Assembly: GCF_003334315.1 (NCBI RefSeq)
Contig: NZ_QOWR01000095.1
Origin: Escherichia coli
Lineage (GTDB): Bacteria > Pseudomonadota > Gammaproteobacteria > Enterobacterales > Enterobacteriaceae
DNA length: 5,360 nt
Reading direction: 5' to 3' (one strand)
Both the position numbers and the translations under genes were made by a program. The notes under the pieces are model-generated. The model had not been told where the DNA came from. It saw only the letters and a list, made by a program, of their open reading frames with translations, and searched no databases. Shown piece after piece: positions 51-5,360 of this stretch. The stretch's first letter is position 1; each line of letters starts with the position of its first letter.

Positions 51-293
51 GTGTATGGAAATATAGGGGCCAATCCAGAAGCCAATCTGATAGTTGATAA
101 TTTAATTACAGATAAGTTACCGCTGGAATTTTCTTCATGGGTCGCGAGAATGCGTACGCCAGAAGCGTTAGTAGACGCTATTCGCATTTACCAACAGAGC
201 GCATCGACAGAGGTGAGAACGTATTTTGCCTTGCAGAATGATGGCTTTTTCACCAGTGATATCATCATGGTAGATGCACATAAAGCGGCATAA
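51..293 (+). CDS. yafE: 3' portion of a putative SAM-dependent methyltransferase (YafE-like); only the last ~80 codons are open in this window, so it may be truncated or a pseudogene
   Basis: Open frame ends at TAA 291-293, convergent with mltD and followed by a shared hairpin terminator. Upstream the frame is closed by TGA 42-44 and TAA 45-47, and the other two forward frames also carry stops (TAA 38-40, TAG 64-66), so no frame is open across positions 1-66. The first in-frame start is GTG at 51. The symbol is assigned from synteny as I recall it (the gene convergent with mltD in E. coli K-12); the methyltransferase call is a weak inference from that identification, since the 80 residues contain no diagnostic motif. 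Confidence 0.45.
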   Translation: MYGNIGANPEANLIVDNLITDKLPLEFSSWVARMRTPEALVDAIRIYQQSASTEVRTYFALQNDGFFTSDIIMVDAHKAA

Positions 294-295
294 AT

Positions 296-330
296 AAAAA
301 AGGCACCGGGGGAATCGGTGCCTTTTTATT
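296..330. terminator. Bidirectional intrinsic terminator shared by convergent yafE and mltD
   Basis: Perfect inverted repeat GGCACCG (302-308) / CGGTGCC (316-322) with a 7-nt loop, flanked by an A-tract (296-301) and a T-tract (323-330). Either strand therefore reads as a GC stem followed by a U-run. It lies 3 nt after the yafE stop and about 11-19 nt from the mltD stop. Confidence 0.75.
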
Positions 331-340
331 ATCTGGTTTG

Positions 341-1699
341 TCAGGAATCTGGCATGTTGTTGTTTTTCACAAACAACGTCAGCTTATCGCCTGGTTGCAG
401 ATTCGCAGTGTCGCTGTTCCAGCGCATCACATCTTTGATGTTCACGCCGTGGCGTTTAGCAATGCTTGAAAGCGAATCGCCTTTGCGCACACGATACGTA
501 ATGCTATCGCTGTTGTTTGCCAGTCGCTGTGCGCTACTGCCTGCACCAATCGTCAAACTTTGGCCTGGCTTCAGCTTAGATCCGCGCAGTTTGTTCCACT
601 GCTGCAAATCTTTGGTGCTTACGCCGAGACGTGAAGCGATACTTGAAAGCGTGTCGCCAGAGCGTACGGTGTAAACACGGCTGTTAAGCGGCGTATTGTC
701 GGCAACCAGCGTCGACTGTACAGCAGCAATTTCGCCTGAAGCCAGAGATTCACGCAGTTGATCTGCATGCTTCTTTGGCACCATCACGTACTGCGGGCCA
801 CTTGCGCCCAGCGTGGAGCCTTTTACGCCAGCGTTGAATGTCTTCAGCTTGCTGACGGAAATCCCCGCCATATCTGCTACCTTCGCCATTTCAACCGGGC
901 TGCTCAGGTGCACACGCGCCAGAGCACGGCTTTCATCGGTCGTTGGCAGACGTACGCCATAACGCTTGCTGTTTTTGAGAATATCACTCAATGCCAGCAT
1001 TTTAGGCACGTACTGCTTCGTTTCCTGCGGCAACGGTAACGACCAGAAGTCCGTGGATTTCCCACGCGCTTTGTTGGTTTTAATTGCCTTCATGACCCGA
1101 CCTTCGCCGCTGTTATAAGCCGCTACGGTCAGAAGCCAGTCGCCGTCAAACATTTTGTTCAGACGCTGCATCATATTCAGCGCGGCAGTTGTTGAAGCAA
1201 CAACATCGCGACGCGCGTCATAATTGCGGGTCTGTTTCAAACCATAATTGCGCCCCGTGCTCGGAATGATCTGCCAGATGCCTGCGGCATTGGCGCCAGA
1301 CGTTGCGTGAGGATCAAAAGCGCTCTCCACTATGGGTAGTAGTACCAGTTCCATAGGCATGTTACGTTTTTTAACTTGCCCTGCTATCCAGTACATATAC
1401 GGCTCTGCCCGTAAAGTTACATCGTGGAGATAGCTCTTATTGCGTAAATATTTCTGTTTCTGTTCGCGAATCCGGTCATTTTCCGGAATTCCCATCTTTA
1501 GCTCGTCGCCAATGAAAGCCCACAAGTCACCATCTGGCGCGATAGACGTCCCATCGTCCATCCATCGTGCCTGACTTGTAAACTTTGCTGCTTCCCCTTG
1601 ACCAGCTGCAGAAAGGCTCTGTGCGTGCTGTTGAACGTTGCCGGTACTCTGGCAACCCACGAGCAGGACAGAGGCGAGTAATATCGCTTTTGCCTTCAT
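341..1699 (-). CDS. mltD: Membrane-bound lytic murein transglycosylase D (lipoprotein with a lytic transglycosylase domain and two C-terminal LysM repeats)
   Basis: 452-aa ORF. N-terminus MKAKAILLASVLLVGC has a signal peptide and LVGC lipobox. The lytic transglycosylase catalytic region is present (LPIVESAFDP ... AAYNSGEG). Two LysM-like repeats occur at the C-terminus (YTVRSGDTLSSIASRLGV..., YRVRKGDSLSSIAKRHGV...). Length and sequence match E. coli MltD as I recall it. Confidence 0.95.
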   Translation of the reverse strand: MKAKAILLASVLLVGCQSTGNVQQHAQSLSAAGQGEAAKFTSQARWMDDGTSIAPDGDLWAFIGDELKMGIPENDRIREQKQKYLRNKSYLHDVTLRAEPYMYWIAGQVKKRNMPMELVLLPIVESAFDPHATSGANAAGIWQIIPSTGRNYGLKQTRNYDARRDVVASTTAALNMMQRLNKMFDGDWLLTVAAYNSGEGRVMKAIKTNKARGKSTDFWSLPLPQETKQYVPKMLALSDILKNSKRYGVRLPTTDESRALARVHLSSPVEMAKVADMAGISVSKLKTFNAGVKGSTLGASGPQYVMVPKKHADQLRESLASGEIAAVQSTLVADNTPLNSRVYTVRSGDTLSSIASRLGVSTKDLQQWNKLRGSKLKPGQSLTIGAGSSAQRLANNSDSITYRVRKGDSLSSIAKRHGVNIKDVMRWNSDTANLQPGDKLTLFVKNNNMPDS

Positions 1700-1731
1700 G
1701 TGTGTGTCAATAGTTGCTTAAAAGACGACCG

Positions 1732-1760
1732 ATCATAACGGCGAACGGAGCCGATGACAA
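1732..1760 (-). promoter_or_regulatory. Candidate sigma70 promoter for mltD
   Basis: On the minus strand: -35 TTGTCA (plus coordinates 1755-1760), a 17-bp spacer, and -10 TATGAT (plus 1732-1737), about 30 nt upstream of the mltD ATG. It sits in the 71-bp gloB-mltD gap. Sequence match only. Confidence 0.35.
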
Positions 1761-1770
1761 GAAAGTTTTA

Positions 1771-2529
<759 letters not shown>

Positions 2530-2559
2530 TTACCTCTCAGTGTGAAACGGAAGGTTGTG

Positions 2560-3282
2560 ATGAAACCGGCAAGAGTCCCTCAAACTGTCGTGGCTCCTGA
2601 TTGCTGGGGCGATTTGCCCTGGGGAAAGCTTTATCGCAAGGCGCTGGAGCGCCAGCTCAACCCGTGGTTCACTAAAATGTATGGTTTTCATCTGCTTAAG
2701 ATTGGCAATTTAAGCGCAGAAATCAATTGCGAAGCGTGCGCGGTTTCTCATCAAGTGAATGTTTCTGCGCAAGGAATGCCCGTCCAGGTACAGGCGGACC
2801 CACTTCATCTTCCTTTTGCCGATAAATCCGTTGATGTTTGTCTACTGGCACATACATTGCCGTGGTGCACCGATCCGCATCGTTTATTGCGTGAAGCCGA
2901 TCGGGTATTGATTGATGATGGCTGGCTGGTCATTAGTGGCTTCAATCCCATCAGTTTTATGGGATTACGCAAACTTGTGCCGGTATTGCGCAAAACCTCG
3001 CCCTATAACAGCCGGATGTTTACTCTGATGCGGCAGCTGGACTGGCTCTCTTTGTTGAATTTTGAAGTGCTACACGCCAGCCGTTTCCACGTTCTCCCGT
3101 GGAACAAACACGGAGGAAAACTATTGAATGCGCATATTCCTGCGCTTGGTTGCTTACAACTTATTGTTGCCCGGAAACGGACTATTCCTTTAACGCTAAA
3201 TCCGATGAAACAGAGTAAAAACAAGCCACGAATTCGCCAGGCGGTTGGAGCCACCCGGCAATGTCGTAAACCACAGGCTTAA
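2560..3282 (+). CDS. yafS: Putative SAM-dependent methyltransferase YafS
   Basis: ORF in frame 1 ending at TAA 3280-3282. The preferred start is ATG 2560 (MKPARVP...), preceded by GGAAGG at 2549-2554 with a 5-nt spacer; this gives 240 aa. The track's upstream GTG at 2542 would add 6 residues but has no better RBS. The product call follows the usual annotation of this conserved gene; I did not verify motifs beyond a general methyltransferase-like composition. Confidence 0.85.
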
Positions 3283-3746
3283 ACTTCAACTTGGTAGCCT
3301 GTATCTTCCAGTGTGGGATTCATCGCCGCGGCACGAGCCAGTTCATCACAGCGTTCGTTTTCCGGGTGTCCGGCATGGCCTTTAACCCATTCCCATTTGA
3401 TTTGATGCTGCCCCAATGCAGCATCAAGACGTTGCCAGAGATCGACATTTTTTACTGGTTTTTTGTCTGCGGTTTTCCAGCCACGTTTTTTCCAGTTATG
3501 GATCCACTGGGTGATACCCTGGCGGACATACTGGCTGTCGGTACTCAAAATGACTTCGCAATGTTCTTTTAACGCCTCCAGCGCGACAATAGCGGCCATC
3601 AACTCCATACGGTTGTTGGTGGTGCGGGTGTAGCCAGCGCTAAAGGTTTTCTCGCGTCCGCGATAGCGTAAAATAGCGCCGTAACCCCCAGGTCCTGGAT
3701 TGCCCAGACACGAACCATCGGTGAAAATTTCTACCTGTTTAAGCAT
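3279..3746 (-). CDS. rnhA: Ribonuclease HI
   Basis: 155-aa product [21 protein letters not shown]...[21 protein letters not shown] with the RNase H carboxylate residues in their expected contexts ([25 protein letters not shown]). The start is ATG at 3744-3746 (minus strand) preceded by AGGAAG. The 192-aa ORF in the track is an in-frame upstream extension lacking an RBS. Confidence 0.95.
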
Positions 3747-3810
3747 CTCTGGTAGACTTCCTGTAATTGAATCGAACTGTAAAACGACAAGTCTGACATA
3801 AATGACCGCT
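3747..3810. promoter_or_regulatory. Divergent rnhA/dnaQ intergenic control region
   Basis: 64-bp AT-rich gap between back-to-back start codons (rnhA 3746 on minus, dnaQ 3811 on plus). It contains -35/-10-like hexamers (TTGAAT 3767-3772, ATAAAT 3798-3803), but I could not pair them into a confident promoter. Divergent overlapping promoters are established for this gene pair in E. coli. Confidence 0.5.
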
Positions 3811-4542
3811 ATGAGCACTGCAATTACACGCCAGATCGTTCTCGATACCGAAACCACCGGTATGAACCAGATTGGTGCGCACTATGAAGGCCACAAGATC
3901 ATTGAGATTGGTGCCGTTGAAGTGGTGAACCGTCGCCTGACGGGCAATAACTTCCATGTTTATCTCAAACCCGATCGGCTGGTGGATCCGGAAGCCTTTG
4001 GCGTACATGGTATTGCCGATGAATTTTTGCTCGATAAGCCCACGTTTGCCGAAGTAGCCGATGAGTTCATGGACTATATTCGCGGCGCGGAGTTGGTGAT
4101 CCATAACGCAGCGTTCGATATCGGCTTTATGGACTACGAGTTTTCGTTGCTTAAGCGCGATATTCCGAAGACCAATACTTTCTGTAAGGTCACCGATAGC
4201 CTTGCGGTGGCGAGGAAAATGTTTCCCGGTAAGCGCAACAGCCTCGATGCGTTATGTGCTCGCTACGAAATAGATAACAGTAAACGAACGCTGCACGGGG
4301 CATTACTCGATGCCCAGATCCTTGCGGAAGTTTATCTGGCGATGACCGGTGGTCAAACGTCGATGGCTTTTGCGATGGAAGGAGAGACACAACAGCAACA
4401 AGGTGAAGCAACAATTCAGCGCATTGTACGTCAGGCAAGTAAGTTACGCGTTGTTTTTGCGACAGATGAAGAGATTGCAGCTCATGAAGCCCGTCTCGAT
4501 CTGGTGCAGAAGAAAGGCGGAAGTTGCCTCTGGCGAGCATAA
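3811..4542 (+). CDS. dnaQ: DNA polymerase III epsilon subunit (3'-5' proofreading exonuclease)
   Basis: 243-aa product [17 protein letters not shown]... with the DEDDh exonuclease motifs (Exo I DTETTG, Exo II HNAAFD, Exo [17 protein letters not shown]) and the C-terminal QTSMAF beta-clamp-binding motif. An alternative in-frame ATG at 3802 would add 3 residues; 3811 corresponds to the canonical protein. Confidence 0.95.
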
Positions 4543-4617
4543 ATACCTGTGAAAGGCGCTAAAAATAGCGACTTGGGCGATTTTTGCAGCAAACGATTCA
4601 AAAGATGAGAAAAACCG

Positions 4618-4646
4618 TTGACGAAGGTCGAGGCAATCCGTAATAT
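4618..4646 (+). promoter_or_regulatory. sigma70 promoter of tRNA-Asp (aspV)
   Basis: -35 TTGACG (4618-4623), 17-bp spacer, -10 TAATAT (4641-4646), followed by a GC-rich discriminator TCGCCTCG (4647-4654) and preceded by an A-rich stretch (4600-4616) that could act as an UP element. The tRNA begins about 28 nt after the -10. This architecture is typical of stringently controlled stable-RNA promoters. Confidence 0.6.
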
Positions 4647-4674
4647 TCGCCTCGTTCCCAACGGAACACAACGC

Positions 4675-4751
4675 GGAGCGGTAGTTCAGTCGGTTAGAAT
4701 ACCTGCCTGTCACGCAGGGGGTCGCGGGTTCGAGTCCCGTCCGTTCCGCCA
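4675..4751 (+). tRNA. aspV: tRNA-Asp (anticodon GUC), 77 nt with encoded CCA
   Basis: GGAGCGGTAGTTCAGTCGGTTAGAATACCTGCCTGTCACGCAGGGGGTCGCGGGTTCGAGTCCCGTCCGTTCCGCCA. Acceptor stem GGAGCGG/CCGTTCC, GTC anticodon in a CCTGTCACG loop, and a T-arm GGTTCGAGTCC. The locus name comes from its position immediately downstream of dnaQ. Confidence 0.97.
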
Positions 4752-4781
4752 CTATTCACTCATGAAAATGAGTTCAGAGAG

Positions 4782-4811
4782 CCGCAAGATTTTTAATTTT
4801 GCGGTTTTTTT
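4782..4811 (+). terminator. Intrinsic terminator downstream of tRNA-Asp
   Basis: Stem CCGCAA (4782-4787) / TTGCGG (4799-4804) with an AT-rich loop, followed by a T7 run (4805-4811). Confidence 0.6.
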
Positions 4812-4907
4812 GTATTTGAATTCCACCATTTCTCTGTTCAATGATTTTACTCTGGCGTAGGTGCGTGATTCTCGCTTGTTGTCTCATTCATTAAAATTCA
4901 ATAATGA

Positions 4908-4930
4908 GGTAATGACTCCAACTTATTGAT
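4908..4930. repeat. IS1 terminal inverted repeat (right end)
   Basis: GGTAATGACTCCAACTTATTGAT at the element boundary, the characteristic ~23-bp IS1 end. The partner repeat lies outside the window. Confidence 0.85.
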
Positions 4931-5360
4931 AGTGTTTTATGTTCAGATAATGCCCGATGACTTTGTCATGCAGCTCCACCGATTTTGAGAACGACAGCGA
5001 CTTCCGTCCCAGCCGTGCCAGGTGCTGCCTCAGATTCAGGTTATGCCGCTCAATTCGCTGCGTATATCGCTTGCTGATTACGTGCAGCTTTCCCTTCAGG
5101 CGGGATTCATACAGCGGCCAGCCATCCGTCATCCATATCACCACGTCAAAGGGTGACAGCAGGCTCATAAGACGCCCCAGCGTCGCCATAGTGCGTTCAC
5201 CGAATACGTGCGCAACAACCGTCTTCCGGAGACTGTCATACGCGTAAAACAGCCAGCGCTGGCGCGATTTAGCCCCGACATAGCCCCACTGTTCGTCCAT
5301 TTCCGCGCAGACGATGACGTCACTGCCCGGCTGTATGCGCGAGGTTACCGACTGCGGCCT
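4923..5360 (-). CDS. insB: IS1 transposase InsB (ORF B of the InsAB' frameshift fusion), 5'-truncated by the window edge
   Basis: The minus-strand frame is open from the window end (5360) to TAA at 4923-4925 and encodes ...[145 protein letters not shown]. The track's 125-aa ORF (4923-5300) starts at an internal Met. Confidence 0.93.

Follow-up and report, generated by a model that had tools for sequence, protein, structure and literature searches.

Conservation and mapped start of a sigma-70 promoter at the tRNA-Asp gene aspV of Escherichia coli

Does the tRNA-Asp gene aspV, which lies just downstream of dnaQ in Escherichia coli, have a promoter of its own, and does this promoter belong with the growth-rate- and stringently controlled promoters of other stable RNA genes? 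We addressed this question in a window of 5,360 nucleotides, the whole stretch of DNA that was analysed (assembly GCF_003334315.1, contig NZ_QOWR01000095.1), for which an original prediction had been made from the letters alone. The window covers a region of the E. coli chromosome with the gene order yafE'-mltD-gloB-yafS-rnhA-dnaQ-aspV. Positions 72-4907 are identical, base for base, to MG1655 (K-12), and MG1655 coordinates are converted to those of the window by subtracting 232256. All features described below are on the plus strand.

The dnaQ coding sequence occupies 3811..4542 (K-12 annotation 236067-236798), and 75 bp separate its end from the -35 hexamer of the promoter considered here. 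The gene for tRNA-Asp(GTC), aspV, lies at 4675-4751 and was identified by ARAGORN, by Rfam (67.7 bits) and in the annotation; in the Rfam search the tRNA was the sole match. The gap between dnaQ and the tRNA is 132 bp long and contains the whole promoter core. The name aspV dates from 1987 (Horiuchi et al.), and the gene, cloned on a plasmid together with its own promoter and terminator, has served as a cassette for tRNA expression. The aspV promoter is thus an already known and ordinary feature, and the first reading of it was correct.

Core promoter, start site and conservation

We identified every element that had been claimed for this promoter, namely TTGACG, a 17-bp spacer, TAATAT, a GC-rich discriminator and an A-rich tract. 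The -35 hexamer TTGACG (4618-4623) agrees with the consensus at 5 of 6 positions and is the same as the -35 of leuV. The spacer (4624..4640) is 17 bp, a length that is fixed, and its sequence is mostly variable apart from the conserved final three bases, CCG. The -10 hexamer TAATAT (4641-4646) agrees with the consensus at 4 of 6 positions and retains T-12, A-11 and T-7. Directly after it comes TCGCCTCG (4647-4654), which comprises the 7-nt discriminator TCGCCTC (4647-4653; 5 of 7 bases G or C, with C as the second base past the -10) and the G of the start site. The A-rich stretch AAAAGATGAGAAAAA (4600-4614) lies upstream of the -35. The promoter lies 28 bp upstream of tRNA-Asp, and the distance from +1 to the tRNA is 21 nt. 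The description of the promoter as near-consensus is somewhat generous, above all for the -10, although the spacer has the optimal length; the two hexamers combined agree with the consensus at 9 of 12 positions.

In sigma-70 promoters the hexamers resemble TTGACA and TATAAT and are separated by 16-18 bp (here 9/12 and 17 bp), and a 5'-triphosphate end lies 6-9 nt past the -10 (here 8 nt). A hexamer scan alone does not place the site above chance, as the window holds 9 sites with at least 9 of 12 matches and shuffled sequences are expected to hold 6.6 ± 2.5. With 9 matches against this expectation, the consensus scan was dropped as proof of a promoter. The exact promoter string has a chance expectation of 0.01, a figure that was calculated post hoc. 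What makes the aspV site more than a chance match is the conservation of its elements and their spacing, together with the mapped 5'-triphosphate end at 4654.

The start had been predicted at 4653-4655, and two independent maps that are specific for 5'-triphosphate ends place it at 4654. Table S2 of Romero et al. (2014) lists FWD_(I)-236910 on the plus strand, class I being starts that are TAP-enriched and at the leading edge of transcription (PMC4681348). In Cappable-seq data (Ettwiller et al., 2016; PMC4782308) the same MG1655 position, 236910, is a start, and its relative read score is 10.7. This position corresponds to 4654 in the window, a G. As a control, we compared other entries of the Romero table with our own coordinates: the rrnB P1 entry is exactly the computed +1 (4164390), and the entries for tyrT and leuV fall within 1-3 nt of our estimates. 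The modest Cappable-seq score at 236910 is plausibly due to rapid removal of the leader. A second, weaker Cappable-seq start (relative read score 3.9) was noted at 4669 (MG1655 236925), 6 nt upstream of the tRNA. This signal lacks a recognisable -10 and has no counterpart in the dRNA-seq table; it probably reflects noise or processing of the transcript.

To define the footprint of the promoter, we sampled the dnaQ locus of 80 different Enterobacteriaceae species, which yielded 79 distinct upstream sequences. tRNA-Asp lies downstream of dnaQ at 79 of the 80 loci; at the last, the contig ends too early to tell. All 79 sequences have the -35 TTGACG and a spacer of 17 bp. The -10 is TAATAT in 76 sequences, the remaining three having TAGTAT or TACTAT, and a G is found at +1 in 78 of 79. 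The discriminator consensus is nCGCYTC, with an invariant CG and a mean GC content of 70% over the 79 sequences. In spacer columns 4624-4633, by contrast, identity to the window is mostly 15-61% (80% in one column), and the spacer sequence is about 50% identical overall. Fourfold-degenerate sites of dnaQ, used as a neutral proxy, have a mean identity of 55%, and 6% of them reach at least 94%. As the elements and their spacing are fixed while the sequence of the spacer behaves like neutral sequence, selection acts on precisely the promoter elements and the distance between them.

Taken with the mapped start, we consider it very likely that 4575-4654 is the sigma-70 promoter of a monocistronic tRNA-Asp gene, aspV, in E. 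coli. RNA polymerase holoenzyme uses TTGACG and TAATAT, 17 bp apart, and initiates at the G at 4654. aspV is confirmed as an independent and conserved transcription unit, the start of which is already present in public maps of transcription start sites. Of 5426 complete E. coli genomes, 5425 carry the 105-bp promoter region as a single copy, which supports its suggested use as a landmark for the native side of the aspV locus. No paralogues of the promoter turned up at other places in E. coli, the median being one place per genome. The result has little importance beyond annotation, where it provides exact coordinates for the conserved, core-genome flank of the integration hotspot at aspV.

The upstream region and its relation to dnaQ

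Upstream of the core we identified a conserved block that extends from -79 to -51 (4575..4603). Most of its columns are at least 94% identical in the 79 sequences, a level reached by 6% of the neutral-proxy sites, and we propose that the block is an upstream activating region. It contains the Fis-like 15-mer GGCGATTTTTGCAGC (4576-4590), which is centred at -71 and has the form G-N13-C with an A/T core. In the 79 sequences its G and C are 100% conserved and its core is 87-100% conserved, and it has 3 of the 4 key positions of a Fis site. Fis site I of both rrnB P1 and tyrT lies at -71, and the K-12 sequences of these two promoters have comparable G-N13-C 15-mers with an A/T core at this same position. 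The 15-mer of aspV is a candidate Fis site. A paper on the regulatory network places aspV in one module with the fis operon and other tRNA operons, and this membership is consistent with Fis regulation at the level of the database.

Candidate UP-element sequences are found on either side of the end of this block. The distal position (4596-4603) is conserved and agrees at only ~6 of 11 positions with the consensus. The A-tract AGAAAAA (4608..4614), 3 bp upstream of the -35 and at the position of the proximal subsite, is 90-100% conserved, and AAAAA (4610-4614) is present in 79 of 79 sequences. The match is 7 of 9 to the proximal subsite consensus AAAAAARNR, which is reported to come from Estrem et al. 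(1999). We infer that this A-tract may be a contact for alpha-CTD. On balance we lean slightly towards a mechanism in which activity during fast growth would come from upstream contacts, that is, from the A5 proximal UP tract and from the Fis-like site at -71 within the -79 to -51 block.

An imperfect inverted repeat (4556-4570 and 4576-4590; A5T ... AT5) is located between the dnaQ stop codon and the -35 of aspV. It could be a hairpin at the 3' end of dnaQ, or it could represent paired A-tract sites for protein binding.

The tRNA was claimed to be expressed independently of dnaQ, and for its start this is borne out: aspV has its own primary start downstream of dnaQ, at the leading edge of transcription. 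No terminator was predicted between dnaQ and the aspV promoter, and Term-seq has no mapped dnaQ 3' end in the gap between the two, so that some read-through from dnaQ into aspV may still occur. A stronger version of this idea is that the hexamers are incidental and that tRNA-Asp comes mostly from transcripts of the dnaQ promoters, processed by RNase P and RNase E. The lack of a predicted terminator all the way from dnaQ to the tRNA would suit such an origin, as would the finding that hexamers this close to the consensus turn up in the window at least as often as by chance. However, two datasets place a 5'-triphosphate end, TAP- and cap-enriched, exactly 8 nt past the -10, and one of them classes the 5' end of aspV as a leading edge of transcription. 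Furthermore, an incidental pair of hexamers is hard to reconcile with a -35 and spacing kept in 79/79, and a -10 kept in 76/79, of the Enterobacteriaceae sequences. We regard read-through as the main source as scarcely credible and effectively refuted. Another interpretation concerns the upstream region and leaves the aspV start in place: the conserved block (4575-4603), taken together with the A5T tract (4561-4566), may serve mainly as a 3' hairpin of the dnaQ mRNA or as a weak bidirectional terminator, and not as an activator site for aspV. In favour of this reading, the inverted repeat is found in most genera, and in Klebsiella, Raoultella and Kluyvera it folds at about -22 kcal/mol. Pairing in register holds for 74.5% of cells, compared with 38-51% in slid registers, and no other terminator was predicted for dnaQ. 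Yet covariation is absent, as the observed pairing equals the shuffled mean and there are 3 double-change cells only, and the 3' arm is near-invariant while the 5' arm drifts, which is the pattern of a protein or DNA site and not of an RNA helix. In E. coli the hairpin is weak, with its T-run inside the stem and not after it. In addition, conservation continues for 13 bp past the repeat, to 4603, and Term-seq gives no dnaQ 3' end at the repeat. Thus, we find it unlikely that the block is mainly a dnaQ hairpin and keep this as a minor rival to an upstream activating region of aspV. The two roles can coexist.

If they do, the block might have a dual role, with the 3' arm of the hairpin at the end of dnaQ also acting as an aspV activator and coupling termination of dnaQ to initiation at aspV. 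Another possibility is that the block is bound by some different factor and not by Fis. Together with the A5 tract and the leader hairpin described below, the block and its Fis-like 15-mer go beyond what was noticed at first reading: a -79 to -51 block, an A-tract in the proximal UP position and a conserved hairpin at the 5' end of the transcript. That the block and the hairpin are jointly more than generic Fis, UP and leader features, the block having a dual role or binding a factor other than Fis and the hairpin being functional, is in our view doubtful.

The transcript and its processing

The aspV transcript is ~160 nt long and consists of the leader, the tRNA and a 3' trailer that ends at a hairpin and T-run. 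The 5' leader of the pre-tRNA (4654..4674) is 21 nt long and is removed by RNase P; a processing site has been reported at the exact mature 5' end of aspV. The leader forms a hairpin of 5 bp, GUUCC-CAAC-GGAAC (4654-4667), which begins at +1 and has a folding energy of -6.0 kcal/mol (z = -3.1). Among 52 distinct Enterobacteriaceae leaders the hairpin begins at the first transcribed base in 51, and the length and sequence of its loop vary. Its 5' arm is invariant, so these sequences demonstrate retention of pairing and not compensatory change. In a subset of tRNA operons such a hairpin might protect the triphosphate end, tune promoter escape, or influence RNase P processing or the shape of its substrate.

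Downstream of the tRNA, a small hairpin identified by folding (4758-4773) precedes a terminator-like hairpin with a T-run (4776..4817). The latter has a 16-pair stem followed by TTTTTT and closes the monocistronic unit. Literature on 3' processing of the aspV precursor describes polyadenylation after a strong secondary structure, in agreement with this terminator hairpin. 3' ends or cleavage sites are found 1-3 nt past the CCA of aspV, at 4752-4754 (MG1655 237008-237010): Romero et al. list 237008/09/10 (PMC4681348), and in Term-seq 237009 has a very high count. Such ends are 3' maturation intermediates. RNase P and 3' trimming free the tRNA from the ~160-nt transcript.

Stable-RNA architecture and predicted control

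The architecture had been read as that of a stable-RNA promoter, and the comparison with K-12 agrees: the discriminator, the C two bases past the -10 and the A-rich tract match those of rrnB P1, tyrT and leuV. The promoter directs a tRNA, which begins 21 nt past +1, and it has a GC-rich discriminator with a base other than G two positions past the -10. The spacer departs from the class, being 17 bp in 79 of 79 sequences and not the 16 bp that is common, though not strictly defining, among these promoters. By our own reading of their sequences, the promoters of thrU and argX have 17-bp spacers too.

To judge by sequence, the closest relatives of the aspV promoter are those of leuV, tyrT and rrnB P1. 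The CGCC core of the discriminator is common to aspV, rrnB P1 (GCGCCACC), tyrT (GCGCCCC) and leuV (GCGCCTCC). leuV (leuQPV) has an identical -35, TTGACG, and its discriminator GCGCCTCC is the same as TCGCCTC at 6 of 7 positions; like aspV, it drives a tRNA transcript from a purine start after a long GC-rich discriminator. The leuV promoter differs in its spacer (16 bp, against 17 bp in aspV), its -10 (TAGAAT, against TAATAT), the number of tRNA genes that it drives (three, against one) and the length of its leader (33 nt, against 21 nt). Control of leuV by growth rate, the stringent response and Fis is reported in work from the Holmes laboratory (Opel et al., 2004). Regulation is demonstrated for leuV, whereas that of aspV is predicted by analogy.

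tyrT shares with aspV the GC-rich discriminator, the G-N13-C 15-mer with an A/T core at -71 and a 5'-terminal hairpin of similar sequence, which is GCUUCCC-GAUA-AGGGAGC in tyrT and GUUCC-CAAC-GGAAC in aspV. Unlike aspV, it has a -35 of TTTACA, a 16-bp spacer, a -10 of TATGAT and a leader of ~43 nt. Three Fis sites of tyrT (-71, -91 and -122) have been footprinted; the candidate site of aspV is predicted from sequence and conservation. rrnB P1 resembles aspV in that the -35 is 5/6 in both, in the C that is second after the -10 in its GC-rich discriminator GCGCCACC, in a start more than 7 nt from the -10 and, as far as the aspV sequence suggests, in an A/T-rich UP region and a Fis-type site at -71. 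The two promoters differ at the -10 (the consensus TATAAT in rrnB P1, 4/6 in aspV), in the spacer (16 against 17 bp), in the discriminator (8 against 7 nt), in the starting base (A against G) and in the UP element, which is full in rrnB P1 and only partially matched in aspV (proximal 7/9, distal ~6/11).

The promoters of rrnB P1, tyrT and leuV are stringently controlled. By analogy with them, the aspV promoter is probably under stringent and growth-rate control. The GC-rich discriminator, with C two bases past the -10, and the imperfect -10 would produce a short-lived open complex. This in turn would make initiation sensitive to the level of the initiating NTP and to inhibition by ppGpp/DksA, as at these three promoters. 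A recent review describes GC-rich discriminators as typical of promoters that are inhibited by ppGpp/DksA and have short-lived open complexes, and transcription of tRNAs as a class is reduced in the stringent response. aspV, aspT and aspU encode identical mature tRNAs, and for this reason bulk data on tRNA-Asp cannot be assigned to aspV.

The promoter might instead be essentially constitutive, with a stable open complex and little effect of ppGpp/DksA or growth rate, in which case growth-dependent tRNA-Asp would come mainly from aspT and aspU in the rrn operons. The optimal 17-bp spacer, compared with 16 bp in rrnB P1, tyrT and leuV, could lengthen the life of the open complex and so speaks for this possibility; the good -35 would add to the stability of the complex. 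The review on ppGpp control notes that responsiveness is hard to predict from sequence, and pArgX illustrates that tRNA promoters can act atypically with DksA. The literature search also leaves room for constitutive expression, since the accessible literature yielded no experiment that directly measures how ppGpp, DksA, growth rate or Fis affects the aspV promoter. However, the conservation of the discriminator (nCGCYTC, the CG being invariant) far exceeds the neutral rate, which points to functional constraint, and the discriminator has the CGCC core of stringently controlled promoters. The curtailment of tRNA gene transcription as a class in the stringent response also argues against a constitutive promoter. 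We consider constitutive expression improbable, and stringent and growth-rate control the better account of the aspV promoter. Such control, and that by Fis, seems to have been assumed for aspV by analogy. The family-wide footprint (nCGCYTC, the -71 block, the A5 tract and the +1 hairpin) marks the bases to mutate.

Several observations concern the surroundings of the promoter. The rnhA and dnaQ promoters are divergent and overlapping, and two dnaQ starts from Cappable-seq fit this arrangement. They fall in the short divergent region between rnhA and dnaQ, at 3765 and 3790 (MG1655 236021 and 236046), and the one at 3765 is strong (relative read score 405). At the left edge of the window, positions 1-71 (with matches that reach ~82-98) match the end of an IS3-family element that is ISEc27-like (94-98% identity), and are not yafE. 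On the right, identity to MG1655 ends at 4907 and the sequence diverges beyond. Positions 4908-5360 are presumably the end of an IS1 element (GGTAATGACTCCAACTTATTGATAG...), to judge by its terminal repeat, and the many chromosomal and plasmid matches to this segment are in line with IS1. This end starts 156 bp past the tRNA and takes the place of the K-12 sequence toward yafT. As two different IS elements flank the segment that is identical to K-12, the source strain appears to be rich in IS elements.
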